Origin: Fastidiosibacter lacustris
GTDB lineage: Bacteria; Pseudomonadota; Gammaproteobacteria; Francisellales; Francisellaceae
DNA length: 32,000 nucleotides
Reading direction: 5' to 3'
Assembly (NCBI RefSeq): GCF_003428155.1
Contig: NZ_QLIR01000004.1
Location: forward strand, 94,050-126,049
Part shown: piece by piece, positions 2,575 to 19,446 of the stretch
How the letters are laid out: every line of letters starts with the position of its first letter
Numbering within the stretch: position 1 is the stretch's first letter
Notes under the pieces: model-generated
Database searches by the model: none
Told to the model about the DNA's origin: nothing
The model's input: only the letters and a program-made list of their open reading frames with translations
Program-made: the position numbers and the translations under genes

Positions 2575-3090
2575 ATGGCTAAAGGTACAATCAATAAAGT
2601 AATATTATTAGGGCGTTTAGGAGCGGACCCAGAAATTCGTTATATGCCAAGTGGGATGTCGGTTGCAAATTTACGCTTAGCAACAAATGATGGCTATAAG
2701 GATCGCCAAACAGGTCAGTTTATTGAAAACACTGAATGGCATCGTGTTGTTGTATTTGGTAAGCAAGCAGAAGTAATTTCGCAGTATACACAAAAAGGCT
2801 CAATCATTTATATTGAAGGTCGAATTCGCACTAACAAGTGGCAAGATCAAAATGGTCAAGATCGTTATACAACTGAAATTGTTGCAACTGAAATACAATT
2901 AATTGGTGGTCGTGGAGATGGTCAAATTCAAGATTCAGCACCTGCTCAACCACAGCAGTCTCAAGCACAATTTGCTCAGCCATCAGCGCAACCAGCAGCA
3001 CCTGCATATAACCAACAGGCAGCTCAGAATCAAACGCCACCAGATATCAATCAATTAAATGATTTTGATGATGACGAGATCCCATTTTAA
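2575..3090 (+). CDS. ssb: Single-stranded DNA-binding protein
   Basis: Has an OB-fold N-terminus (INKVILLGRLGADPEIRYMPSG, WHRVVVFGKQAE), a Gln/Pro/Ala-rich linker and the acidic tip DFDDDEIPF. AAAGGTG lies upstream of the ATG. Confidence 0.96.
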   Translation: MAKGTINKVILLGRLGADPEIRYMPSGMSVANLRLATNDGYKDRQTGQFIENTEWHRVVVFGKQAEVISQYTQKGSIIYIEGRIRTNKWQDQNGQDRYTTEIVATEIQLIGGRGDGQIQDSAPAQPQQSQAQFAQPSAQPAAPAYNQQAAQNQTPPDINQLNDFDDDEIPF

Positions 3091-3092
3091 TT

Positions 3093-3695
3093 ATGCTAAA
3101 TGAATTTATCACGCTAACAGCAACAGATTCCATTTATTGGGATATTAAATATAGTCATAATGGGAATATTGTTGGACGCAAAATTAGCGGTTATTATGCA
3201 AATAAGTGTATGATGACGAAAAGTTGCTTTAGTGCACTGCAAAAAGTCACGGCTTCAGCTAAACGCTTAGGATATAGTTTATTAATTTGGGATGCCTATC
3301 GCCCTAAAAAAGCGGTAATCGATTTTTGGCACTGGTCTCAGAATTTAAGTGATAATGGTACTAAAGCACAATATTATCCTAATTTGTCTAAGGGTGAGTT
3401 ATTTGCCAAAGGCTATTTCAATAAAACCTCAAACCATTGTAGTGGTAGCACAGTCGATTTAACATTAATAAACAAAAGTGGTAAAGAGCTTGATATGGGA
3501 ACGTGCTTTGATTTTATGGATCCATTGTCACATCCACATAACTTGTGTGTTTCTAAAGTTGTGCAAGGTAATCGTAAACTTTTGCAAGGCATGATGATAG
3601 ATGCAGGTTTTGAGCCAATAGACACTGAATGGTGGCATTTTCGCTTATCTGATGAGCCTTTTGAAAATCAAATGTTTGATTTTGATATTATTTAA
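3093..3695 (+). CDS. ddpX: D-alanyl-D-alanine dipeptidase, VanX/DdpX type (peptidase M15D)
   Basis: 200 aa. Has SNHCSGSTVDL (SxHxxGxAxD zinc block) and EWWHF (catalytic Glu/His block), plus WDAYRP. The ATG lies 2 nt after the ssb stop. Confidence 0.85.
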   Translation: MLNEFITLTATDSIYWDIKYSHNGNIVGRKISGYYANKCMMTKSCFSALQKVTASAKRLGYSLLIWDAYRPKKAVIDFWHWSQNLSDNGTKAQYYPNLSKGELFAKGYFNKTSNHCSGSTVDLTLINKSGKELDMGTCFDFMDPLSHPHNLCVSKVVQGNRKLLQGMMIDAGFEPIDTEWWHFRLSDEPFENQMFDFDII

Positions 3696-7574: not shown

Positions 7575-10500
7575 ATGGAAATGGTTATAAAAAAGTATTT
7601 TGCATATTTATTGGGGTGGGTTTTTCTTTTATCAGGCTGCGGTGGTAGCGGTGGCGGCAGTGAGGATGTATCTGCAATTAAAATAAAGCAAGGTATAGCT
7701 TTGCCAGATGTGATAAAACAAGATAGTGAAGCAATTGGTATTGTTGAGATAGGTTATGAAACAAATCGTGATCAATTTACGATTGCAACCAAGAGTGACA
7801 GTCAGCGTCTTATGATTGATAAGGATAAGATTAAACTGGAAGGCGAAGGAGTCAGAATAGCTTGGGACTTGGTTAATGATTCATCCTGTGTTAACAAGGA
7901 AAGGCAGTATGTTGAGCGCAATGGTAGTTGTAATTTACCTATTCAGATTAACAGTCAAAAGCTCGGTGTTCATTCGATTAACTTACAGGTGACCACGCGT
8001 GATGGCAAGACAGCAGAGCAATCATTTAAGATAGAGGTGGTAGAGCCATTTTCACCTAAGCTTGGTAGCAGTGCTATGATAGTCAATTATCTTGATCCTG
8101 TCCTAAATGGTATATATGGTCATAGTGATAGATCCGTTTTGCTATACAATGCGGGGAATAAATTAAACAATGTGCGCGTTCTGGATAAAAAAACTAAATT
8201 AGTGTTACATAGGGCAGTTGAATTAAAAGCCGGTGAATTAAGTAAATTACGATTTGATGGACAACTGGAGTTACCTTTTGGTCTGTCTCCTTCATTAGAT
8301 ATTATGGCAGCAAACTTGCGTGAGAATTTCAAAGTGAATTATTTGCCGCATGATTGGCTAGCAACGCGTGTTAATCACCTTGCAATTACCAAACCTGGGC
8401 AAAGTAAACTTGCATTTGAGGTTTTGCAACCAGGTTTTGAAGTGGTGGAAATAAGTTTTGACTTTGAAGGTAAGGGTGTAGCGTTAACTGATAAGCCATT
8501 CACCGAAGACGACACATTAGAGTCCAAATTATATAATTTTACTTTCTCAGTAGCAGATGATGCTTATGGAGCGGGGGACTTGACAGTTACATTGCGTCGT
8601 GATGGGCACGATGTGGAATATAAAAGTAAAGTTACTGTTCAACCGATTAGTTTAAAAGTTGAAGCAGCAGATGAAGTATTACGCGAAGCTGGACAACTTT
8701 ATACAATAAAGGTTACCAATCAATCGGCATTTAACTGGTCAATTTCACAGGATAAATTTGAGCTTGGTGGATTAGCACCTCATGCAATGTGGGATAATAC
8801 AGTTCTTGATAATTGTCGTGATCTATCTTACTTGGCAGCAGGTGGAAGTTGTAATTTACAACTAAAATATACTCCTGATGTTAATAACTTGCGTACAGGC
8901 AATTATGCGTTGAAGATAAAAGATGATATAAGACTTCCGAAAACGCAAAGTGTAGATATCAAGGTGATTCAAGGGAATCAGAAGTTGCATGTCTATGCAC
9001 CTGTAAAGCTGTCTGAAAATGATTATAAACTGGAGATTTTTAATAATGACAGTAAGAATGTTGATGTCACATTAATTGGTAATAATCTTGATTTTATCAC
9101 GGCTCAAAATTGTGGTCTTATAAAACAAGATGATAGTATTAAGGTAACAGTGTCTCAAACAAGCTTATGTACAGTTGAGCTTAGAAAGTCAGATGTCAAC
9201 ACTGAAGCAACATTAGAGTATGACAGTGAAAATGGTAGAGGTAAGTACTATTTCTTACAATCAGAGCAGTTATTGTATATCGATGGTAAGGCAGTTGTTG
9301 TTTATGATGTCAATAAATATGGAGAATTTATAAGGATTGATGAAAATCAATATCCTGTGAAAATTCAGAAAGTACAAGATATTGTGGCAAAAGAAGATGA
9401 GCTATATATTGCAACAGATGTTCCGGGTGTGTTGTATCGCTATAAGGATAATACGATAACTGAGTTTATCCATATTCCAGACAATAGTTTTATTCAGCAT
9501 ATTGAAAAGGGTGCAGCAGATGATGTTTTAGTGGCAGTATCTTTTAACCCGTTTGAGGAGCAAAACAATTTCTGGCAGATTAATTTGCAGACTCGAAACG
9601 TTGAGCTAATTGCCAGCTTTTCAGGATATATCAATCGTATTAAAGGAATTGAAGCAAATGAGTTTCATATTGTTGGTACGGATCTTATCTATAACAATCA
9701 GACATCAAATATACTGGTTTTAAAGGTTGATAAAGACAGTAGTAAAAGTGGTGTAATGATTCCTCCGCTTCCGGTTATTATGCAGAGCGGACCGATATTT
9801 GATGTTGCTCACACGAAGGATACTTATTATGCAGCCAGTATTTTTGGTGAGCATTCTGGATTGATCGAGCTTCCTTATCCTTTGGATGCCAGTAATACTG
9901 TGAAAGCGCAAACGGTGGTGATGGACGATACATTTTATAAGGAAGGAGGATATGTATCACAAGTAGATGCAAGTATTGAAGGAGATGCTGTTTATGCCTA
10001 TGGCTGGCTGAAAGACAATCAATACGTTTTGATGCAAAAGAAACAAGGTCAAGTTAAGCCTATCCCATTGAGTAGCTATATAAGATACATTGTGCCTATG
10101 TCAGATGGGCTATATTACAGTGCAACTGAAAGTAGTGGGAATAATCATTTTATTTCTCGCTGGAAGAATAAGGAAGAAGAACAAAAAATTATGAGTCAAA
10201 ACTTTACTATTTCAACAACAGAAAATGTGTTGAAATTGAAAAGACACCATCAGGAAGTTGTTTCTTCGAATGCATTTTCGGTATTATTGCCTGCGTCGTT
10301 GGAGATAACAGAGCGTAAAGAGCATCTATTACAAGCAAAAGAATTTGTATCTAGAAATATGGATAGTCATGCAATAGATTATGTTTGGTCAGGAGAGGTG
10401 GGGGTGTTTAACCCAGATGCAACAAATCAAGCAAGCATTAACTTGACTGCACCAGCTTTTAACCCAAGAGAGAACAATCAATATAATGTTAAGCTTTTAG

Positions 10501-13500
10501 CAACTTTGGATAATGAACAGCAAGCGCTAGAGACAATAGTAGAAGTACTTGTGGATCCAAATCTTAAAGGCAGTGTAGCGATTAGTGGAGATACTGAGGT
10601 TACAGAGAATAACGAAGTGACATTGAGCGCAAGCTATAGTGCCCCGAGTGATTCACCTGTACGTTTACCGAAAGCGGATGGATATAGCTGGACTGTACCA
10701 GCGGGTTGGAGCGTGGTAGGCGCAAGCAATCAAGCGACGCTTACAGTAAAAGCGCCGAACTGGAGTGCGACTCTTACAGCGGGATCGTTTAGTGTGACTG
10801 CGACGGATGATGCGAATATTACAACGGATAGCTCAGTAGCGCATGGTGTAACGGTTAAGCATGATACGAACTTAAAAGGCAGTGTAGCGATTAGTGGAGA
10901 TACTGAGGTTACAGAGAATAACGAAGTGACATTGAGCGCAAGCTATAGTGCCCCGAGTGATTCACCTGCACGTTTACCGAAAGCGGATGGATATAGCTGG
11001 ACTGTACCAGCGGGTTGGAGCGTGGTAGGCGCAAGCAATCAAGCGACGCTTACAGTAAAAGCGCCGAACTGGAGTGCGACTCTTACAGCGGGATCGTTTA
11101 GTGTGACTGCGACGGATGATGCGAATATTACAACGGATAGCTCAGTAGCGCATGGTGTAACGGTTAAGCATGATACGAACTTAAAAGGCAGTGTAGCGAT
11201 TAGTGGCGCGGCTGAGGTGATTGAAAATAACACGGTGACATTAACCGCGAATGTAACAAATCTTCCTGCTGGTAGAGAGATTCAAGTGGATGGATATGAC
11301 TGGAACTTACCAAGTACCTGGAGTGTTGTGGGAGATAAGAATAAAAAGGACATTACTATAAAAGCTCCACGCATGACTTTAGATCAAAATATAAGCAATA
11401 TAAATGTTGTAGTAGACGCAACGGATAATGCAGGTGTAAGAACATCTTTGGCTGTGAAGCGAATGACTATCAAGCCAGATCACAACCTTTTGACGGTAGA
11501 TGCAGGTTTTGGTGATAATGCAATAGAAGGAAGTACGAAGAATTTGGCTGCAACGGTGAGTGGAAGCGGTACTGCGCCGTATAGCTATCTTTGGACAAAC
11601 AATCAAGGTATTACTATTACAAATGCAAATCGAGCGTTCTTTGCGATGTTTACAGTGCCTATCCTTACAGCTCCCAATGAAGACTACACCTTTACGGTGA
11701 CGGTAACAGATGCGGTAGGTAGACAAAAGAGTGCAAATGTAACTTACATAGTAACGCCAGATAACAACCGCTTGCAGGTAAGTGCAGGTACTAATGGTTT
11801 TGTACAGGAAGAAATCGAACAAGCGTTGAGTGCAAGCGCAAGTAATGGTACTGCACCGTATCAATACAAGTGGACGACAACAGATGGGGTTAGCATTACA
11901 AATCAGAACGCCCAAAATGCGACATTTAAGGCACCTACATATAATGCAACTGGTAATAATCGCTACACATTTAATGTGGAAGTGACTGATGGAGTTGGTA
12001 GGAAAAGAACCGCTGTGGTGACTTATGATGTTGAGAAAGTCACAATTAATATCACCAAGGTAGTAGCGCTTCCAAGCGTTATGATGAAGGGTGTTAGCTA
12101 TCCTTTTACTTATGAATTTAAAAATACCTCAAAGGTTGCTATAAAAGGAGTCCACGTAGAGTATGATGGTAGTTCGGGCGCTGTTACTAATACTGTTTCA
12201 CATGGCTGTAGAGGGGAGATGGCTATAGGTGGATATTGTGAAGTAACTGGTGTATTCACACCACGAAATTTACGTACAGCGATGACACGTTTTAGATTGG
12301 GATACAATCAAGGTATGGGTAGAAAGTTTGTTTCTTCACTTGATCTAAGTGCTGTCTACGGTTTAACCACCCCAGTTGCCCCTGTATCAGGCAGTGTCAC
12401 TTCATCCAGTCAGCAATGGCCGGCTAGACGATTTGAAGAGGCGACTAACAGTATTGGTCAAGCTTGTAATGATGCGGTATATGATAAATTAACAGGATTG
12501 ATGTGGAGAAAAGATGGTCGCAATGGCTCGACATCATGGAATGCAACTTGGCCTACTGGGACAAGTGAAGGATCCACGTGTGGTTATACTGACTGGCGTC
12601 AACCTAATCTAAATGAACTGCGTAGTTTGGTGAATTATGGTCATCCAGGAACCCCCGCATCATGGTTAAATGCCAATGGGTTTAATAATATTCAAAGTGA
12701 GTATTGGACAACTACGGAATATGGTCCTGACAATACTAAAGTGTGGTGGATAGATATGACTAACGGTCAATTAAGTGTAGCCGCTAAGAGCAATAGATCT
12801 TATGTGATAGCTGTTCGTGAAGAGCGCCCTCCGGTTACAGTTACGACAGTAACGCCAATTCCAGAGCAAACGGTTGTGGGTGAGAGCTATCCTTTTAGGT
12901 ATGTTGTTACTAACTCTGGTGTATCTTTTGCAGTTGGTGCACCTGTATCAGCTTTAAGTATAACAGGGCAGCATACTGATAATGGGACTGTACAATTAAA
13001 TTCTGGCAATCGAACATGTGAAGATAATATGGTATTAAACTTCAATCAATCTTGTGAGGTAAGTGGTGTATTTACGCCATCCACCCCGGGTGTGCAGAAT
13101 GTCGGCTTTTTAGTAAAATATAATTTAGGTCTAGGTGGTAGGTATAAAAAGACGACTAGTACAGTCACCACGGCTAAATCTAAAACCTCCCCAATTGCGC
13201 CTCAACCAGATGCAGCTACTTTCCCGAATCATCAATGGCCTGAGGGAAGGATTAAATACTTGGGTTTCTGTACTATGATGGGCTCTGGAGGAATCCCTGT
13301 ATATAGATGGTATGATAACTTAACAGGTTTAACGTGGCACGTGAGTTTTAGGTCGATTATGTGGCAGGAGAGCAATAATATTAGTAGTATTAGTACTGAG
13401 AATAATTGTGGTGCGATGACAGGTTTGCGGTTACCTACCGTAAATGAGCTACAAAGTTTAGGGAACTTTGGTTATGCGGGAACTCCTTTTGTATGGTTAA

Positions 13501-13655
13501 CTGATGTCGGGGGCAGTGGTTTGGTTGGGACTTATTGGACAAGTAGCCCTGTTGCGCTCTCAAATACTCATGTGTGGGCAGTTGATATGACGAATGGTAA
13601 AGTAGTTGAGAAGCTAAAAACTGATTCTGCTTACGTGATACTTGTTAAGGCTTAA
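7575..13655 (+). CDS. Giant (2026 aa) surface lipoprotein/adhesin: lipobox, Ig-like (ASH/choice-of-anchor-D-like) modules, probable beta-propeller-like middle, PKD/Ig-like repeats, then two [Ig-like + DUF1566/Lcl-C] cassettes
   Basis: Signal peptide with lipobox LLSGC (7629-7640; Cys22) followed by a GGSGGGS linker. Recurrent C...GSCNL / SCEV(S/T)GVFTP strand motifs. Y-x-W ... F-x-A-P PKD-like repeats (SYLWTNNQG, YQYKWTTTDG). Two C-terminal modules carry CGYTDWRQPNLNELRSLVNYG and LRLPTVNELQSLGNFG. The 6-kb frame is uninterrupted. Confidence 0.92.
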   Translation: MEMVIKKYFAYLLGWVFLLSGCGGSGGGSEDVSAIKIKQGIALPDVIKQDSEAIGIVEIGYETNRDQFTIATKSDSQRLMIDKDKIKLEGEGVRIAWDLVNDSSCVNKERQYVERNGSCNLPIQINSQKLGVHSINLQVTTRDGKTAEQSFKIEVVEPFSPKLGSSAMIVNYLDPVLNGIYGHSDRSVLLYNAGNKLNNVRVLDKKTKLVLHRAVELKAGELSKLRFDGQLELPFGLSPSLDIMAANLRENFKVNYLPHDWLATRVNHLAITKPGQSKLAFEVLQPGFEVVEISFDFEGKGVALTDKPFTEDDTLESKLYNFTFSVADDAYGAGDLTVTLRRDGHDVEYKSKVTVQPISLKVEAADEVLREAGQLYTIKVTNQSAFNWSISQDKFELGGLAPHAMWDNTVLDNCRDLSYLAAGGSCNLQLKYTPDVNNLRTGNYALKIKDDIRLPKTQSVDIKVIQGNQKLHVYAPVKLSENDYKLEIFNNDSKNVDVTLIGNNLDFITAQNCGLIKQDDSIKVTVSQTSLCTVELRKSDVNTEATLEYDSENGRGKYYFLQSEQLLYIDGKAVVVYDVNKYGEFIRIDENQYPVKIQKVQDIVAKEDELYIATDVPGVLYRYKDNTITEFIHIPDNSFIQHIEKGAADDVLVAVSFNPFEEQNNFWQINLQTRNVELIASFSGYINRIKGIEANEFHIVGTDLIYNNQTSNILVLKVDKDSSKSGVMIPPLPVIMQSGPIFDVAHTKDTYYAASIFGEHSGLIELPYPLDASNTVKAQTVVMDDTFYKEGGYVSQVDASIEGDAVYAYGWLKDNQYVLMQKKQGQVKPIPLSSYIRYIVPMSDGLYYSATESSGNNHFISRWKNKEEEQKIMSQNFTISTTENVLKLKRHHQEVVSSNAFSVLLPASLEITERKEHLLQAKEFVSRNMDSHAIDYVWSGEVGVFNPDATNQASINLTAPAFNPRENNQYNVKLLATLDNEQQALETIVEVLVDPNLKGSVAISGDTEVTENNEVTLSASYSAPSDSPVRLPKADGYSWTVPAGWSVVGASNQATLTVKAPNWSATLTAGSFSVTATDDANITTDSSVAHGVTVKHDTNLKGSVAISGDTEVTENNEVTLSASYSAPSDSPARLPKADGYSWTVPAGWSVVGASNQATLTVKAPNWSATLTAGSFSVTATDDANITTDSSVAHGVTVKHDTNLKGSVAISGAAEVIENNTVTLTANVTNLPAGREIQVDGYDWNLPSTWSVVGDKNKKDITIKAPRMTLDQNISNINVVVDATDNAGVRTSLAVKRMTIKPDHNLLTVDAGFGDNAIEGSTKNLAATVSGSGTAPYSYLWTNNQGITITNANRAFFAMFTVPILTAPNEDYTFTVTVTDAVGRQKSANVTYIVTPDNNRLQVSAGTNGFVQEEIEQALSASASNGTAPYQYKWTTTDGVSITNQNAQNATFKAPTYNATGNNRYTFNVEVTDGVGRKRTAVVTYDVEKVTINITKVVALPSVMMKGVSYPFTYEFKNTSKVAIKGVHVEYDGSSGAVTNTVSHGCRGEMAIGGYCEVTGVFTPRNLRTAMTRFRLGYNQGMGRKFVSSLDLSAVYGLTTPVAPVSGSVTSSSQQWPARRFEEATNSIGQACNDAVYDKLTGLMWRKDGRNGSTSWNATWPTGTSEGSTCGYTDWRQPNLNELRSLVNYGHPGTPASWLNANGFNNIQSEYWTTTEYGPDNTKVWWIDMTNGQLSVAAKSNRSYVIAVREERPPVTVTTVTPIPEQTVVGESYPFRYVVTNSGVSFAVGAPVSALSITGQHTDNGTVQLNSGNRTCEDNMVLNFNQSCEVSGVFTPSTPGVQNVGFLVKYNLGLGGRYKKTTSTVTTAKSKTSPIAPQPDAATFPNHQWPEGRIKYLGFCTMMGSGGIPVYRWYDNLTGLTWHVSFRSIMWQESNNISSISTENNCGAMTGLRLPTVNELQSLGNFGYAGTPFVWLTDVGGSGLVGTYWTSSPVALSNTHVWAVDMTNGKVVEKLKTDSAYVILVKA
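10566..11206 (+). repeat. Near-perfect in-frame tandem duplication: 309-bp (103-codon) unit x2 (10566-10874, 10875-11183), plus the first 23 nt of a third, diverged unit
   Basis: Line-by-line comparison found one difference between the full units (T10660 vs C10969, Val to Ala). The third unit (11184 to about 11490) is recognisably homologous at protein level only. Confidence 0.95.
12411..12822 (+). other. DUF1566/Lcl C-terminal-like module, copy 1 (inside the giant lipoprotein)
   Basis: QQWPARRFEE ... LTGLMWRKDG ... CGYTDWRQPNLNELRSLVNYG ... YWTTTEYGPD ... VWWIDMTNG ... SYVIAVRE. Confidence 0.8.
13227..13652 (+). other. DUF1566/Lcl C-terminal-like module, copy 2 (C-terminus of the giant lipoprotein, more diverged)
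   Basis: HQWPEGR ... LTGLTWHVS ... CGAMTGLRLPTVNELQSLGNFG ... YWTSSP ... VWAVDMTNG ... AYVILVKA. Confidence 0.7.
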
Positions 13656-13684
13656 TAAAAATTAATAAATGCTAGGAATATAAT

Positions 13685-14251
13685 ATGAAAAACATTCAGC
13701 ATAGAATAATAAAAAAAATTGGCTTGCTTTCAACCCTGCTTATTTTCTTGGGAGTGGCAAGTCAAAGCTTCGCTTATGATGTTGTGATCCAAGCGGATGA
13801 TGCAGCATTTCGCGGTGATGGACAATGGCCAACCCCTAGGTTTGTAGAGGCAATTGGAGCAGATGGTGTGCCTTGCTCTAGTTTACTACGTGATAAATTA
13901 ACGGGTTTGACATGGCGAAAGAATGCTTATGAGGGTCGCACAAATTGGCAGGGTGCAATGAATTTTGCAGCGAACTTTGCAAAGGATCATCCTATTTCTG
14001 CGTGTGGTTATACGGACTGGCGCGTGCCTAATATTAATGAGCTTCGAAGCCTAGTGAATTATGGCGCTCAAGAGCCAAACATATGGTTAAATGCCAATGG
14101 GTTTAATAACTTTCAAGATACTGCTGGTTATTGGACAAGTACGGAATATGGACCTGACAAAGATCAAGCCTGGCTCGTGGATATGGGAGAGGGTGGCACT
14201 TTTTTCGCTCCTAAGCGCAATGGACGAGCTTATGTAGTGATTATTCGTTGA
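13685..14251 (+). CDS. Secreted single-domain DUF1566/Lcl-C-like protein (188 aa)
   Basis: Sec-type signal peptide (MKNIQHRIIKKIGLLSTLLIFLGVASQSFA) with no lipobox Cys. Then GQWPTPRF, LTGLTWRKN, CGYTDWRVPNINELRSLVNYG, YWTSTEYGPD, AWLVDMGEGG, AYVVIIR. AGGAAT lies upstream of the ATG. Confidence 0.88.
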   Translation: MKNIQHRIIKKIGLLSTLLIFLGVASQSFAYDVVIQADDAAFRGDGQWPTPRFVEAIGADGVPCSSLLRDKLTGLTWRKNAYEGRTNWQGAMNFAANFAKDHPISACGYTDWRVPNINELRSLVNYGAQEPNIWLNANGFNNFQDTAGYWTSTEYGPDKDQAWLVDMGEGGTFFAPKRNGRAYVVIIR

Positions 14252-14361
14252 TTAACAACGGTCATTGAGTCATTTGATGATTTATTTTAATTGCTTTGTA
14301 AGTAAAAATTGAAACAGAATAAATAGGTACAAAAATCGATAGAGTTTTTAAGGAATATGCG

Positions 14362-14967
14362 ATGAAAAGCATTCAGCACAAAATAATAAAAAAAATCGGG
14401 ATTGTTATGACCTTGTCCATGACCTTAGGCATTGGTGAGTATAGCTTTGCGGCGGCTATCGTTCAAGATGTCAAGCCAGGTGGTATGGGTTTTGGAGGAT
14501 GGCCAAATCCCAGATTTGAAGATGCAGTTAAGGCAGATAGTACACGTTGTGCTGACGCAAAAATAGATAACTTAACGGGGTTGATGTGGCAACATAATGC
14601 TAGAAATGGTGGACATACTTGGCATCATTTAACGAACGCTGCTACAGGTGCCAAAACATGTGGTTATACTGATTGGCGTTTACCTGACTTAGGTGAAATG
14701 TTAAGTTTAGTGAATTATGGAAGCGCTGGTACACCAAGAGATTGGTTATTGGGTCAAGGATTTTTTTATGACATTCCAGGGGATGCTTATTATTGGACAA
14801 GTACAGCAAATTCGCAAAACAGTAATCAGGCGTGGCTTGTTGATATCATGAATGGCAGTACACGAGTACACAATAAGGGTAGTTATGAAGTCGCTACTTC
14901 TCCAACAACAAGGTACACCTTTGCCTGGTATGTTCGTGGACCCAAGAATCCGCATTTGATTTTGTAA
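14362..14967 (+). CDS. Secreted single-domain DUF1566/Lcl-C-like protein (201 aa), paralogue of 13685-14251
   Basis: Signal peptide MKSIQHKIIKKIGIVMTLSMTLGIGEYSFA, with an N-region near-identical to the upstream paralogue. Then GGWPNPRF, LTGLMWQHN, CGYTDWRLPDLGEMLSLVNYG, YWTSTANS, AWLVDIMNG. Confidence 0.88.
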   Translation: MKSIQHKIIKKIGIVMTLSMTLGIGEYSFAAAIVQDVKPGGMGFGGWPNPRFEDAVKADSTRCADAKIDNLTGLMWQHNARNGGHTWHHLTNAATGAKTCGYTDWRLPDLGEMLSLVNYGSAGTPRDWLLGQGFFYDIPGDAYYWTSTANSQNSNQAWLVDIMNGSTRVHNKGSYEVATSPTTRYTFAWYVRGPKNPHLIL

Positions 14968-15165: not shown

Positions 15166-16266
15166 ATGACAGATAAAATACCAACAGAAATAAATGCTTC
15201 AAAATCTGATATGCTTTCATCAGAAGGCACAATTGATTTATTTCATGACGTTACCAAACTTATTGAAGAAGCTCGTAATCATGTTGCCAGAGAGTATAAT
15301 TCAGCTCAAGTGCTACTTTGCTGGCTGATTGGCGAGCGCATCAATGATCGTTTACTACAGTCCGATCGAGCTGACTATGGTGAAATGGTAGTAAGTTCTT
15401 TAGCCGACCAACTTAAAGTGAAGTATGGTAAAGGTTATAGTCGAGCAAACTTATTTCGTATGATCAAATTTGCTAAGTTATATCCTGATCGCAAGATTGT
15501 CTCAACGCTGTCGCGACAATTATCCTGGTCTCACTTTGTGCTTATTTGCGGTATTGATGATTACTTAAAACGAGACTTTTTTGCTGAAATGTGCCGTGTA
15601 CAGAAATGGAGCGTTCGAGCATTGCAAAAGCAGATTAATGGAATGCTTTATGAGCGTGTTGGTTTAAGCAAGCAACCAGAGGGGGTAATTAAAGCTCAAA
15701 TTAGCCAACTTAAAAATAACGATGAAATGACGCCAGAGATGACATTTAAAGAACCTTACTTTTTGGATTTCATTGGTGCTCATTCTTATGCTTCAGAGCA
15801 AGAACTCGAAGATTTGATTTTGCAAAATATCACTGAATTCCTGCAAGAGATTGGAACTGATTTTTGCTTTGTTTCTAGACAAAAACGTATGAGTACTGGC
15901 AAAAAGGATCGGTATCTGGATTTATTATTTTTTAATCGTCGACTGCGCCGCCTTATTGCCATCGATCTTAAACTCGGTGATTTTGATCCAGCTTATAAAG
16001 GGCAGATGGAATGGTATTTGAACTGGCTGGATAAAAATGAACGTCTTGACTACGAAGAAAAGCCTATGGGCATTATTTTATGTGCAGGCAAAGATCATGA
16101 TGATATTGAATATCTTGAAATGGATAAAACCGGCATTCATGTTGCTCAATACCTAACAGAATTACCACCTAAAGAAATCTTAGAAGAGAGTCTACGCAAA
16201 GCGATTTCAACCGCAAGAGAAACCCATATTAAGCGTCTATTACTAGAGGATAGGCGTGATGATTAA
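15166..16266 (+). CDS. DUF1016/YhcG-family PD-(D/E)xK nuclease-like protein
   Basis: 366 aa. Helical N-domain (SAQVLLCWLIGERI, LSWSHF). C-terminal restriction-endonuclease-like core: FKEPYFLDFIG, ELEDLILQNITEFLQEIGTDFCFVSRQ, RYLDLLFFNRRLRRLIAIDLKLG, GQMEWYLNWLD, MGIILC. AAGGA lies 8 nt upstream of the ATG. Confidence 0.85.
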   Translation: MTDKIPTEINASKSDMLSSEGTIDLFHDVTKLIEEARNHVAREYNSAQVLLCWLIGERINDRLLQSDRADYGEMVVSSLADQLKVKYGKGYSRANLFRMIKFAKLYPDRKIVSTLSRQLSWSHFVLICGIDDYLKRDFFAEMCRVQKWSVRALQKQINGMLYERVGLSKQPEGVIKAQISQLKNNDEMTPEMTFKEPYFLDFIGAHSYASEQELEDLILQNITEFLQEIGTDFCFVSRQKRMSTGKKDRYLDLLFFNRRLRRLIAIDLKLGDFDPAYKGQMEWYLNWLDKNERLDYEEKPMGIILCAGKDHDDIEYLEMDKTGIHVAQYLTELPPKEILEESLRKAISTARETHIKRLLLEDRRDD

Positions 16267-16553
16267 ATTAAACTCTTACCTTAGTGTGTAATAAGTCTCA
16301 AATTCTTGACTATCCATTTTCTCCTCAATATGAGAATTAATGCTTTGACCAATGTATTTATTGCTCATTTAAAACCTCCATCATACGTTTCTCGCTGATT
16401 CCACGATCATTGTTTTTTGTATTTTGAGTTGGGTAGGGATTATTGCTTCAGCGAGTGTTTAACACATCCTGTATTACTTCCTCTGCACCGAGTCTAACCC
16501 TTTAAGCAGCGATGATTCAGATAGAGAGTTTACTATTGTTAGATTAAGGGGTA

Positions 16554-16889
16554 TTACGACAATATTACCTTAGAAATTTTGAGGATCTCATCAAGGCATG
16601 TTTTGGGGCACGTTTCTATTTTTTCAGCATTTCTTGATTTAAAATCCATTGAGCGAATCTGAAATGTTAAAATACTGCCTTTTGTTTTACATTTTCCGGG
16701 AAGTGTAACTTCAAATTTATTGCTCCGTTGCACACTTGTAATTGGAGCAACAAAGGTAAACCCCGTGTGATCGTTAAAAACAGCTTTTGTTAAAACAAGT
16801 GCTGGTCTGCGTTTCATTATTTCACGACCAAGGCTTGGATCAAAATCAAGCCAGATAATATCTCCTTGGTCTGGAATATATTTTTTCAA
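16554..16889 (-). CDS. mazF: MazF/PemK-family type II toxin (endoribonuclease)
   Basis: YIPDQGDIIWLDFDPSLGREIMKRRPALVLT ... APITS matches the PemK/MazF N-terminal signature. The ORF track starts at ATG 16922 (37-nt overlap with mazE). A TTG at 16889 gives MKKYIPDQGD... with a 4-nt TTGA start/stop overlap and AAAGGAAAAGAG upstream, so the start is ambiguous. Confidence 0.85.
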   Translation of the reverse strand: MKKYIPDQGDIIWLDFDPSLGREIMKRRPALVLTKAVFNDHTGFTFVAPITSVQRSNKFEVTLPGKCKTKGSILTFQIRSMDFKSRNAEKIETCPKTCLDEILKISKVILS

Positions 16890-17140
16890 ATCTCTTTTCC
16901 TTTTGGCTTGGCTTGAACCCACTCTTTATCTTCGTCAAGAAGCTTAAAACTATCTTTTGGGCTTTCAGCAAGCATTTTTTCTAGACTTAATTCTTCTTTT
17001 TTAGGTATCAAAATGATTTTATTATCTTCAACATGGATATCAAGCTTATCACCCGTATGCAAGTTGAGAATTTGAAGTATTTTTTTAGGGATGCTCACAA
17101 TACTCGCACCACCTGATTGTCTAAGTGATAGTGATGACAT
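16886..17140 (-). CDS. mazE: MazE/AbrB(SpoVT)-type antitoxin
   Basis: 84 aa. SLRQSGGASIVSIPKKILQILNLHTGDKLDIHVEDNKIILIP is the swapped-hairpin AbrB/MazE fold signature. Sits immediately upstream of, and overlapping, the toxin gene. GGAG lies about 10 nt upstream of the ATG. Confidence 0.85.
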   Translation of the reverse strand: MSSLSLRQSGGASIVSIPKKILQILNLHTGDKLDIHVEDNKIILIPKKEELSLEKMLAESPKDSFKLLDEDKEWVQAKPKGKEI

Positions 17141-17182: not shown

Positions 17183-17358
17183 TCAGATTCATACTACTTT
17201 CATTCGTTATTTTATAAAACACTGCCGACATTGTTTGAATATCCAATGCGATAAGTTTAGAATAAGCCGCAGGAAAAAAAGCTACGTTAAGCTACTAGGC
17301 GCGTGTAAACGGTATCCTAAACAATAGATGCGACATAGTGGCAATAAAGGTCTCTAAT

Positions 17359-18033
17359 ATGAATATTGAGCTTGCAAAAGAAAACATGATAAAACAGCAA
17401 ATCCGTCCCTTGGGTGTGCCATATGGGGATTTATTGAGCACAATTATCGATACGCCAAGAGAAATATTTGTACCAAAAAGTTTTAAAGAATTGGCTTATT
17501 CTGAGGTCGAAATTTTGCTTAATCACGGTCAAAAAGAGCTTACGCCTCAAACGGTAATTAAGATGTTGCAACAACTTGCCCCTAAAAGGCATGAAAGGGC
17601 TTTGGAACTAGGTTGTGGTTGTGGCTATTTAACCGCTTTATTGGCTAAACTCACTAAGCTTATCGATGTGGTAAGTGAACACGAAGATATGTTAAATCAC
17701 GTTAAAAATGCTTTAAAGACGATTGGGGTATACAATGCAAAATATCACCTTGGTGTGACAAAAGATGCTAAAACATTGACTGAACTTGTTGGATTGGATG
17801 TAAAATTTGATGTTATAGTGGTGCATAAATATCTTACTGTATCGCCTGAGAATTATCTAAAATACTTAGCAGGAAATGGGCGAATGCTATACTTTTTAGC
17901 CAAAGGTGGCTATGCTAAGGCGGTTTTGATTCATAAAAACGTAGATGGTTCATATCATCAAACATCAACGTTTGATGTTTATGAAAATGTAGATAAGAAA
18001 ATGCAAGCAAAAAAAGCAGTATTTAAATTTTAA
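17359..18033 (+). CDS. Protein-L-isoaspartate O-methyltransferase family protein (Pcm-like)
   Basis: SAM motif I ALELGCGCGYLTALLAKL, and N-terminal NMIKQQIRP typical of Pcm paralogues. The ORF track starts at GTG 17338; ATG 17359 (MNIELAKENM...) is more likely. Confidence 0.75.
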   Translation: MNIELAKENMIKQQIRPLGVPYGDLLSTIIDTPREIFVPKSFKELAYSEVEILLNHGQKELTPQTVIKMLQQLAPKRHERALELGCGCGYLTALLAKLTKLIDVVSEHEDMLNHVKNALKTIGVYNAKYHLGVTKDAKTLTELVGLDVKFDVIVVHKYLTVSPENYLKYLAGNGRMLYFLAKGGYAKAVLIHKNVDGSYHQTSTFDVYENVDKKMQAKKAVFKF

Positions 18034-18057
18034 TAATGGATCACGATAGGTTAGCGG

Positions 18058-19446
18058 ATGAAAAGAATTACAATACTATTAAGTGGATTATTAATGACTG
18101 GATTAGCGTTAGCTAAGATAGACACGATGGATGCTGATGTAGAAAAAACAGCTTCTCTACCACAAAATTTGTCACAGATTTATGCACTTGCACAACAACA
18201 TAATGCACAATATTTAGCAGCAGAAGCGACATTTAAATCAACTGAGCAAAACGTACCACAAGCTTTAGGTAAGCTATTGCCAAATATTACCGCAAGCTAT
18301 AATGCACAGAGTAACTACAGCCAAACTGTGGATGAGTCAACGGGTGCTAAAAACAAATATTTTACTCAAGCGCCTAGCTTAACAGCAACACAAGCACTCT
18401 TTAATTGGGGAGCGTGGGGAGGATATAACTATGCAAGTTATCAAGCTAAAGCAGATGCGATTACTTTTGTGATTGCGCAAGCAAATTTAATTATTTTTGT
18501 TACAAGTGCATATTTTGCGGTATTACAAGCAGAAGACAACCTTGCTTATGCACAAGCAAATGAATCTTGGAATAAAGAATTGCTCAATCAAACGCAAGAA
18601 AAATATAAAGTGGGATTATCGGCTATTACCGATGTCCAAGCAATTAAAGCACAATATGAACAATCAGTAGCGGTAACTGTGCAAGCTAAAAACAACTTAG
18701 CGACAGCGTTTTCGCAAATCAGTCAAATTATCGGTGAACAGGTGACATCGATTGAAAATTTAAGTGACAAATTCCCATTCGACAAACCACAGCCAGACAA
18801 TATGGATAAGTGGCTGCAAATTGCATTAAAGCAAAATAATAATATTGTACAAAATCAATTTTTAGTGGAGGCAGCTCAAGCGGGTGTAAGTGGTTTATGG
18901 GGAGCATTTTTGCCTGCGGCAGAGTTAAATGCTTCTTTGTCACGTAACTTAAATTACCAAAATAAAAACTATACGTCAGGGAGCACAACTTCAGCAGCTG
19001 GTGTTGGGGTGAGCTGGAATCTTGTCAATGGTGGCAGTGACTATGCGGCATTAAAATCTCAACAATATACAGCAACAGCGACCAAATATACTTTGCAAGA
19101 AACACAGCGTGCAACGGAAAGTAAGCTAAAAACAGCTTACCTAACCGTGTTATCCGACATTGCTCAAGTAGAGGCCTACAAGCAAGCAGTTATTGCAGCA
19201 GAAGCTTCTGTTAAAGCGATGAAAGCAGGTTATGATGTAGGAACGCACACTATTGTCGATCTGTTACAACAACAGCAACAACTCTTCCAAGCCCAAAGGC
19301 AATATGCTCAGGCAAAATATGCTTATATCAATGATTTATTGACTTTGAAAAATACAGCTGGGGTATTGAGCTATAAAGACGTTGATGCAATCAACAAATG
19401 GTTAACTGCTGAGAAAGTATCAACACAAAGTAGCAGTATGATTTAA
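18058..19446 (+). CDS. tolC: TolC-family outer-membrane efflux channel
   Basis: 462 aa with a signal peptide (LLSGLLMTGLALA). Two-repeat architecture with long Ala/Gln-rich helical segments. Typical blocks: LSQIYALAQQHNAQ, VGLSAITDVQ, GYDVGTHTIVDLL. Confidence 0.85.
   Translation: MKRITILLSGLLMTGLALAKIDTMDADVEKTASLPQNLSQIYALAQQHNAQYLAAEATFKSTEQNVPQALGKLLPNITASYNAQSNYSQTVDESTGAKNKYFTQAPSLTATQALFNWGAWGGYNYASYQAKADAITFVIAQANLIIFVTSAYFAVLQAEDNLAYAQANESWNKELLNQTQEKYKVGLSAITDVQAIKAQYEQSVAVTVQAKNNLATAFSQISQIIGEQVTSIENLSDKFPFDKPQPDNMDKWLQIALKQNNNIVQNQFLVEAAQAGVSGLWGAFLPAAELNASLSRNLNYQNKNYTSGSTTSAAGVGVSWNLVNGGSDYAALKSQQYTATATKYTLQETQRATESKLKTAYLTVLSDIAQVEAYKQAVIAAEASVKAMKAGYDVGTHTIVDLLQQQQQLFQAQRQYAQAKYAYINDLLTLKNTAGVLSYKDVDAINKWLTAEKVSTQSSSMI

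Follow-up and report, generated by a model that had tools for sequence, protein, structure and literature searches.

The 32,000-nt stretch of Fastidiosibacter lacustris DNA analysed here (the window) carries, at 7575-14967, a cluster of three co-oriented genes that together encode four Lcl_C (DUF1566; PF07603) modules; the source species is borne out by the products of the two smaller genes, S1 and S2, each of which is 100% identical to an NCBI protein of F. lacustris. The first gene encodes a giant lipoprotein whose N-terminus, MEMVIKKYFAYLLGWVFLLSGC-GGSGGGS, joins a lipobox (L-S-G-C, within LLSGC) to a Gly/Ser linker, and whose tail is formed by two tandem cassettes of an immunoglobulin (Ig)-like module followed by an Lcl_C module, termed M1 (internal) and M2 (terminal). 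S1 and S2 lie directly downstream and each consist of a Sec signal peptide followed by a single Lcl_C module. An earlier annotation of this DNA (the original prediction) had proposed just this architecture, of one anchored multivalent lipoprotein with small Sec-signal single-module genes, and the positions of the open reading frames (ORFs), the lipobox and linker, the two cassettes and the two downstream signal-peptide genes all proved accurate (Table 1); signal peptides in the three proteins were assigned by eye. As no convincing terminator was seen between the giant, S1 and S2 in spacers of 29 and 110 nt, the three genes are probably co-transcribed.

Table 1. Features of the Lcl_C gene cluster in the F. 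lacustris window (aa, amino acids; DGR, diversity-generating retroelement; RBS, ribosome-binding site).
Feature	Position	Strand	Basis
Giant lipoprotein gene ("large" partner), 2026 aa	7575-13655	+	ORF list; Pfam Lcl_C x2, K319L-like PKD x4, PKD_6 x2
Lipoprotein signal peptide, aa 1-22 (lipobox LSGC, Cys22 = 7638-7640), and GGSGGGS linker, aa 23-29	7575-7661	+	Read from sequence
N-terminal beta-rich region, aa 30-554, repeated C-x(n)-G-x-SC-x-L "Ig-like" motifs	7662-9236	+	Weak Pfam matches only: FixG_C E 0.002, HYDIN/VesB Ig E 0.04
Giant aa 555-993, without Pfam match or homologue	9237-10553	+	Pfam, homologue search
Three tandem 309-nt (103-aa) PKD-like repeats	10554-11480	+	Repeat search; Tandem Repeats Finder period 309; PKD_6 / K319L-like PKD matches
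Two K319L-like PKD domains, aa 1311-1487	11505-12035	+	Pfam E 1.4e-14
Ig-like module 1 (..GGYCEVTGVFTP..)	12036-12401	+	Aligns with Ig-like module 2 and with pre-Lcl_C modules of L001, L002 and L004 large proteins
Lcl_C module M1, internal, aa 1610-1752, small-type signature CGYTDWRxPNxNELRSLVNYG	12402-12830	+	Pfam 75.4 bits, E 5.6e-21
Ig-like module 2 (..NQSCEVSGVFTP..)	12846-13226	+	Aligns with Ig-like module 1 and with tails of relatives' large proteins
Lcl_C module M2, true C-terminal tip, aa 1885-2026	13227-13652	+	Pfam 53.4 bits, E 3.9e-14
Giant-S1 spacer, 29 nt, with RBS (AGGAATAT)	13656-13684	+	No terminator; no similarity to DGR cassette
S1, small Sec-signal (..SQSFA/YD) single-module Lcl_C protein, 188 aa	13685-14251	+	Pfam 95.7 bits, E 2.9e-27
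S1-S2 spacer, 110 nt, RBS context duplicated	14252-14361	+	No cassette remnant
S2, small Sec-signal (..EYSFA/AA) single-module Lcl_C protein, 201 aa, C-terminal extension (..WYVRGPKNPHLIL)	14362-14967	+	Pfam 72.2 bits, E 5.7e-20; WP_116963613.1

All four modules score above the PF07603 gathering threshold of 34.9 bits, as had been expected of them, and all of the motifs by which they were first recognized are present (WPxxR, LTGL[MT]W, CGYTDWR or CGAMTGLR, and YWT[ST], with a CEV[TS]GVFTP strand in the Ig-like part), S2 deviating slightly in having EM for EL, DI for DM and YEVAT for YVIxV. An AlphaFold2 model of mature S1, the only module modelled (pLDDT 87.4, pTM 0.81), finds as its best Foldseek match in the PDB the C-terminal domain (CTD) of the Legionella adhesin Lcl (8q4e_A; E 3.2e-6, TM 0.54/0.64, 24% identity), followed by the C-type-lectin-like domains of snaclecs, InvE, invasin, intimin and Bacteroides 4EPS. 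A profile of 16 sequences also reaches 8q4e by sequence (E 1.1e-5); a 4-sequence profile searched against the PDB missed it. The model thus assigns S1 the C-type-lectin-like fold of the solved Lcl-CTD, in agreement with the kinship to this domain that had been predicted.

The likeness to Lcl (PDB 8Q4E) lies in the shared PF07603 domain, in the fold match and in what would be the extracellular, adhesin-type character of both proteins; in other respects the two systems differ. None of the three window proteins contains collagen-like GXY repeats, the stalk being built instead of PKD/Ig-type modules. Lcl is re-anchored after type II secretion by an N-terminal amphipathic helix, whereas the giant carries a predicted lipid-modified cysteine and S1 and S2 would be free. 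The Lcl-CTD has no disulfide, whereas each window module has two conserved cysteines, and the window modules carry an extra insert of ~20 residues (SLVNYG..WLNANGF). Finally, Lcl binds glycosaminoglycans (GAGs) through a basic surface (R342, K369, K380, K385, K391), whereas the window modules have isoelectric points (pI) of 5.1-7.2, neutral to acidic, and the Lys-rich C-terminal hairpin of Lcl aligns to their most divergent region. The lysines are themselves not conserved outside L. pneumophila and L. quateirensis (PMC11162425), and the suggestion that GAG binding might carry over from Lcl to these modules finds no support here.

Nor are the small genes copies of the giant's tip, as the original prediction had it. 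Pairwise identities among the modules (M1-S1 50%, S1-S2 47%, M1-S2 44%, M1-M2 40%, M2-S2 37%, M2-S1 33%) show four old paralogues: S1 is sister to the internal module M1 (90.5% bootstrap), and M2, the actual tip, is the most divergent of the four, on a long branch with 33-40% identity to the other three and without a close free copy. The C-terminal ~40 residues, equivalent in position to the variable region (VR) of DGR targets, are 19-46% identical, against 36-56% for the scaffold; in modules of the DGR-bearing clade described below, by contrast, the scaffold is 68-90% and the VR 23-66% identical. One tract of ~24 codons shared by M1 and S1 (12663-12735 versus 14084-14160) stands out: its nucleotide identity is 88%, and at third codon positions it reaches 90% where the overall figure is 58% (permutation p~0.025), a weak hint of short gene conversion.

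We compared the cluster with loci of relatives fetched for the purpose (L001, L002 and so on, among them Cysteiniphilum halobium, L002; Cysteiniphilum marinum, L005; and 'Ca. Nebulobacter yamunensis', L006), defining a pair as a small (<=260 aa) signal-peptide single-module gene directly 3', on the same strand, of a lipoprotein gene ending in Lcl_C, and confining our census to the matches listed by homologue and metagenome searches. In the window, two such small genes follow the giant, across the spacers given above. Elsewhere, S1 homologues lie directly 3' of a larger same-strand gene in L001, L002, L007 (two pairs), L009, L011, L013, L014 and L015, and a metagenome scan added further S1-like pairs in L048 (two), L052, L081, L083 and L090. 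All 16 of the S1-like small genes examined outside the window follow a larger gene ending in one Lcl_C module, co-oriented and across spacers of 29-176 nt; the large partner is a lipoprotein, with a lipobox, wherever its 5' end is present, and its single terminal Lcl_C is Pfam-confirmed for L001, L002, L004, L007 (both), L009 and L011. In a wider metagenome sample, the upstream sequence was informative for 19 small genes, of which 10 are preceded by a larger Lcl_C gene, and a small gene follows 9 of 39 large genes. The anchored large protein and exported small protein therefore form a recurrent unit, invariant in the S1-like subfamily and frequent elsewhere, so that the supposition of a meaningful pairing stands in so far as large and small genes recur together and are conserved; the arrangement is not unique to the window, being common in related genomes.

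Large partners of the S1-like subfamily have as many modules as there are small genes beside them, at 1:1 everywhere and 2:2 in the window. Large-type and small-type signatures are each kept across loci (in L009 and L011 the large modules group with each other at 90% and the small ones at 99.5% bootstrap), and the CGAMTGLRLP of M2 resembles the large-type signature. Both [Ig-like + Lcl_C] cassettes of the giant align to the corresponding tail of the relatives' large proteins and are real repeats, their Ig-like modules being identical at 36 of 128 residues. The Ig-like character of these modules we infer, because Pfam support for it is a faint HYDIN/VesB-like Ig match (E 0.05). Two relatives illustrate multiplication of the whole pair as an alternative to the duplication of modules within one gene seen in the window: L048 (JACCEA011058570.1) has two pairs in tandem (473<+192 and 1080+191, in aa), and L007 has two that are divergently oriented (537+181 and 509+232).

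In one clade of relatives, of Cysteiniphilum type, the unit is accompanied by a DGR, both in Cysteiniphilum and in related metagenome-assembled genomes. L003, L004 and L005 contain a bAvd-TR-RT cassette (TR, template repeat; RT, reverse transcriptase) between or beside the large and small genes, in the order large lipoprotein (with VR), bAvd, TR, RT, small protein (with VR). These loci and their DGR-less kin (L001-L005) match the window in gene order, linker, tail modules and small-gene signal peptide, the lipobox and Gly/Ser linker recurring in the large partners of L001, L002 and L004, and identity between their large and small scaffolds reaches 90%. The repeats are ~103 nt long, AAC and AAT codons abound in the TR, and in L003 (both VRs), the large target of L004 and the cut target of L005 every mismatch between TR and VR is at a TR adenine; L003 has 12 mismatches at A, and the small target of L001 has 18 at A and 3 elsewhere. 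A single TR diversifies both the large and the small partner in Cysteiniphilum. Most targets in the clade share a conserved ..VLPVRGPN end, from which the large target of L002 and the small target of L005 deviate. Among the metagenome loci, only 5 of 80 contain Avd or RT.

The cassette has been lost in two of these relatives, recently in L001 and earlier in L002. At 9660-10010 of L001 we find the scar of its deletion, with the start of avd fused to the final ~210 nt of RT; within the 333-nt spacer the RT remnant retains 95% DNA identity, with 100% aa identity over the last 61 RT codons, and the VRs still look TR-derived. The scar includes a segment of ~58 nt with a perfect 17-bp inverted repeat (GACCTACCCCGCGAATT...AATTCGCGGGGTAGGTC), which may be a mobile-element footprint or the trace of a hairpin-mediated deletion. 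In the L002 spacer a 67-75% match to the 3' end of RT remains, and the VRs have diverged at non-adenine positions too. In L005, the small target (2898-3443), which lies beside an intact cassette, already departs from the TR at non-adenine positions; its 3' end is changed as well (..VRER*), and it may have lost the capacity to accept information from the TR. The DGR region of L003 (3000-12900) is dense in mobile elements, with two Transposase_mut genes, DDE_Tnp_1, an rve/IS3-type gene, a resolvase and a group-II-intron-type RT with GIIM. Many homologues of the DGR RTs carry PF07603 matches, which probably come from ORF calls running through the TR, and most of the best 120 carry a C-terminal MutS_I-like domain, an extension earlier described for three RTs (Wu et al. 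2018).

No part of such a cassette was found in the window, which is the extent of F. lacustris DNA covered by our searches for DGR parts. Pfam detects no RT or Avd in the 20 flanking ORFs scanned, and in a six-frame tblastn of the entire 32 kb with the family RT and Avd the best match has an E of 0.49, against 1.6e-33 for the positive control, L001. The window holds no TR-like second copy of any module's 3' (VR-equivalent) segment, the spacers contain neither a cassette remnant nor similarity to one, and mismatches of the modules to the family TR show no adenine bias (for M1: A16, C12, G6, T4). The ..VLPVRGPN end is absent from M1, M2 and S1 and partly kept in S2 (..WYVRGPKN, GTTCGTGGACCCAA). 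We accordingly reject an active DGR within the window, Pfam, tblastn, the search for a TR copy and the test of adenine bias all being negative.

Comparison with a near-identical strain shows that the VR-equivalent regions are not hypervariable. 'Ca. Nebulobacter yamunensis' (L006) is a Euplotes endosymbiont almost indistinguishable from F. lacustris (PMC9837558), and across the three genes the two differ at 25 single bases, 24 of them in the giant; the VR-equivalent regions account for 3 (M1 1, M2 2, S1 0, S2 0), and S1 and S2 are protein-identical. By comparison, 14 substitutions, 8 of them non-synonymous, are concentrated in 164 nt at 8383-8546 (giant aa 270-324), and genes flanking the cluster diverge by ~0.05%. 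The time needed for change was therefore available, yet the VR-equivalent regions stayed near-constant. As to the hot spot itself, one of the two strains has A at 12 of the 14 sites, no TR-like copy of the segment occurs in the window, and the cluster of changes could be a recombination tract or the product of local diversifying selection in an Ig-like module.

Taken together, these observations lead us to favour, with a probability of roughly 0.6, the reading that the locus is a retroelement-free form of a gene unit recurrent among low-GC relatives of Fastidiosibacter and Cysteiniphilum, furnishing four fixed binding modules, two anchored and two soluble. The unit would comprise an outer-membrane lipoprotein with an Ig/PKD-type stalk that ends in a C-type-lectin-like, ligand-binding Lcl_C module, and a small Sec-exported protein that is the Lcl_C module alone, encoded directly 3' and probably on the same transcript. 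In F. lacustris a duplication of the tail cassette [Ig-like + Lcl_C] would have given M1 and M2, and one of the small gene S1 and S2. Ligands would be bound through the face formed by the C-terminal beta-hairpin, since this is the face that the DGR mutates in relatives, that holds the GAG-binding lysines in Lcl and at which the paralogues differ most. The likely outcome is four fixed specificities, two carried on a long, presumably surface-exposed stalk and two soluble (periplasmic or secreted), the latter perhaps acting with or alongside the former; their probable role would be to recognize ligands on the surface of the ciliate host or other cells. Structures on the surface of host or prey are the obvious candidates, because the organism alternates between free life and the interior of ciliates. 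At least 5 other lineages have the pair but no DGR, a DGR lies between its two genes in a single, Cysteiniphilum-like clade, and on grounds of parsimony the DGR is probably derived, having later colonized a DGR-free ancestral pair in one lineage.

Several points weigh against this reading. Not every member of the wider DUF1566 family is paired, as the fractions given above (10/19 small genes and 9/39 large ones) make clear, and the equality of module and small-gene counts is no general rule, since it breaks down in L018, L068 and L075, which belong to other subfamilies. The N-terminal ~1000 aa of the giant are left unexplained: a search with ~978 aa (aa 23-1000) returned no homologue at E<=1e-3. 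Deep nodes of the module tree have supports of 5-20%, so that a lineage that never had a DGR and one that lost it long ago are not separated. When genome contigs were scanned with the family RT, in a search that returns close relatives only, the sole matches were Cysteiniphilum marinum and one metagenome-assembled genome, and non-adjacent targets are known for 45 of 372 DGRs (PMC5758913), to be set against a window of 32 kb. On the other side, no F. lacustris RT is among the best 120 RT matches, and the Nebulobacter paper and its supplements make no mention of a reverse transcriptase (PMC9837558).

The strongest competing explanation, which we regard as possible though clearly less probable, is that the cluster is a frozen DGR relic: bAvd-TR-RT would have lain ancestrally between the large and small genes, the cassette would have been lost and the variable regions fixed, and the genes would since have diverged and duplicated. 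The window resembles the DGR loci, as noted, in gene order, in lipobox and linker, in its Ig-like and Lcl_C tail and in the small-gene signal peptide; in the databases S1 is closest to proteins that are, or once were, DGR targets; and the DNA at the VRGPKN end of S2, GTTCGTGGACCCAA, resembles the VR 3' end of the family, GTTCGCGGACCCAA. That cassettes are in fact lost, recently in L001 and longer ago in L002, with the small target of L005 decaying, keeps this scenario alive, as do the poorly supported deep nodes of the module tree. Set against it are the lack of any trace of avd, TR or RT in the window at the DNA or protein level, the finding of the pair without a DGR in L007, L009, L011, L013, L048 and others, from which parsimony argues for a DGR gain in one clade, and the nature of the PVRG end as a family-wide structural motif, not specific to DGRs.

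A different question is what the small proteins do. It is conceivable, if rather unlikely, that large and small partners form a two-chain receptor in which the small exported module docks on the anchored one to make a hetero-oligomeric C-type-lectin-like head, an arrangement compatible with the retroelement-free unit that we favour. Such a head would fit the tight co-oriented linkage in all 16 S1-like pairs, the equality of module and small-gene counts in that subfamily, the separate conservation of large-type and small-type signatures and the diversification of both partners by a single TR in Cysteiniphilum, and it has structural parallels, as the Lcl-CTD is a trimer with a conserved interface Trp (PMC11162425) and snaclec heterodimers are among the top fold matches of S1. 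In other subfamilies, however, the count rule is broken; in several lineages the large and small modules are each other's closest relatives, which duplication or gene conversion would explain equally well; and a Sec-only small protein and a surface lipoprotein may reach different compartments. If true, the two-chain head would be loosely analogous to heavy and light chains and would explain the strict linkage, the 1:1 and 2:2 stoichiometry and the shared DGR template, and F. lacustris and 'Ca. Nebulobacter', whose sequences are fixed and for which a ciliate host is known, would provide a tractable system in which to find the ligand of a chromosomal DGR-type receptor.

The roles first proposed for the soluble paralogues, as decoys or competitors for a GAG-like ligand or as a donor reservoir for recombinational tip switching, fit the data less well than a hetero-oligomeric head, and we judge them improbable. 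The conserved M1/S1 tract offers the reservoir idea its weak hint, and the identity of up to 90% between large and small scaffolds in Cysteiniphilum-like loci is consistent with homogenization, but the tract is short, codon bias in an AT-rich genome inflates third-position identity, and in relatives it is mutagenic retrohoming that diversifies the tips, and not recombination. With identities of 33-50% and their greatest divergence at the binding face, the modules would not compete for one ligand, the terminal tip M2 has no close free copy, and the modules are not basic, the GAG-binding lysines of Lcl being variable even within Legionella (PMC11162425).

That one or more modules are still targeted by a DGR elsewhere in the F. 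lacustris genome we consider highly improbable: remote or non-adjacent targets are documented (PMC5758913), and the fold and C-terminal position of the modules are those of CLec2 variable regions, but the four VR-equivalent regions hold 3 substitutions where a stretch of 164 nt in another part of the giant holds 14, mismatches to the family TR show no preference for adenines, the conserved ..LPVRGPN/IMH end is missing from three of the four modules, no close F. lacustris RT homologue appears among the best 120 RT matches or in the contig scan, and the modules differ throughout, so that one TR could serve at most one of them.

The original prediction knew of no described arrangement of this kind, a view that is too strong in the light of the DGR literature. 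DUF1566, together with DUF823 and Fib_succ_major, makes up DGR target "category d", all of whose VRs are CLec2 and which accounts for 14% of DGRs, with the Legionella pneumophila surface lipoprotein LdtA as its exemplar; roughly half of its targets are short proteins consisting of DUF1566 alone, the others having Ig-type and other extensions, and DGRs with multiple targets are known (PMC5758913). A lipoprotein with a C-terminal DUF1566 module of C-type-lectin fold, accompanied by short DUF1566-only proteins, is thus common to the CLec2/LdtA class and the window, and in the sister genus the pair flanks a DGR. The window differs from DGR target loci in lacking RT, Avd and TR within 32 kb, the adenine pattern between TR and VR and strain-level hypervariation, and in that three of its four modules are without the conserved VR 3' end and the modules have diverged over their whole length. 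To our knowledge, no natural ligand is known for any chromosomal bacterial DGR target.

Other elements of the cluster likewise have precedents. The DUF1566 family numbers 56,746 representatives (clusters at 50% identity), among them the Nebulobacter orthologue P0282 and many giants with 4-16 Lcl_C modules; the window giant shares their module type, and differs in an N-terminal ~1000 aa without detectable homologue. Small DUF1566 proteins with type-I signals are known in Leptospira (PMC12723034), and small DUF1566 proteins are abundantly expressed in a mussel symbiont (PMC7750550). Invasin, intimin, InvE D5, echicetin, botrocetin and BACOVA_04982 (4EPS) belong to the same fold class as S1 at 7-19% identity and have no sequence relationship to it; invasin and intimin resemble the giant in placing a C-type-lectin-like domain at the tip of an Ig-repeat stalk, and differ in having an autotransporter/inverse-autotransporter barrel where the window protein has a lipoprotein signal. 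The domain, its fold, multi-module giants, small secreted DUF1566 proteins, the link between DGRs and DUF1566, multi-target DGRs and the MutS_I-like tail of the RT are therefore already known, and the locus demonstrates no new mechanism or component.

What we have not found described is the regular pairing of a large lipoprotein with a small exported paralogue and the series of states in which it occurs, with the window as a fixed, expanded member; the literature searched yielded no account of a small gene regularly directly 3' of a large lipoprotein gene, nor of a series running from DGR-active through freshly frozen to long-fixed across sister lineages. The anchored and soluble pair is thus seen in three states: in Cysteiniphilum-type loci it is being hypermutated, in L001 and L002 deletion of the cassette has newly frozen it, and in F. 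lacustris it is expanded and has long been fixed. Because F. lacustris can be cultivated and has a near-identical sibling inside the ciliate Euplotes, the fixed version is a practical starting point from which to find the ligand and the function of the small partner. The pairing of large with small also makes a useful annotation rule for the very large DUF1566/Lcl_C family, whose generic role is still unclear.

The rest of the giant is less readily interpreted. At E<=1 its N-terminal part has faint Ig-type Pfam matches only, and a single-sequence AlphaFold2 model of aa 555-901 (pLDDT 35.9) is uninterpretable. Copies 1 and 2 of the PKD-like repeat are 98% identical, and L006 has one 309-nt repeat fewer, its giant being called at 1921 aa against 2026 aa; the missing repeat reflects either variation in stalk length between near-identical strains or an assembly collapse. 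Opposite the PKD region lies an antisense 178-aa ORF with a TTG start (11379-11915, - strand), almost certainly a shadow ORF, with a Cys/Ile/Thr-rich, low-complexity translation.

The cluster has a GC content of 40.3%, and the PKD repeats 45%, against 36.0% in the surroundings, which raised the question of horizontal acquisition; yet GC at third codon positions (GC3) is 0.31-0.34 in the cluster and 0.27-0.34 in neighbouring genes, and because the two match there is no sign of recent foreign origin, the shift in GC reflecting a composition rich in Gly, Ala, Thr and Ser. tRNA and Rfam scans of the window found nothing. No usher, type I secretion system (T1SS), type V secretion system or sortase partner is encoded next to the cluster, as had been stated; the only candidate nearby is a TolC-like OEP gene 3.1 kb downstream (18058-19446), which follows a PCMT-like methyltransferase gene within 17338-19446, and we reject a T1SS link for it, as the nuclease, MazEF and PCMT-like genes intervene and no ATP-binding cassette (ABC) or membrane fusion protein (MFP) genes accompany it. 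The nuclease (YhcG/DUF1016, PD-(D/E)XK) and a MazE/MazF toxin-antitoxin pair (- strand) lie directly 3' of the cluster at 15166-17140, and a weak hairpin with a T-run occurs at 14936-14963, at the 3' end of the S2 gene. At the other end of the small genes, the near-identity of their first codons, correctly noted before, extends over the RBS and first 13 codons (S1 13674-13722, S2 14351-14399), with 86% nucleotide identity over 49 nt against ~61% in the modules; this conserved 5' end could be a translational or regulatory element, a constraint on the n-region of the signal peptide or the result of local conversion.

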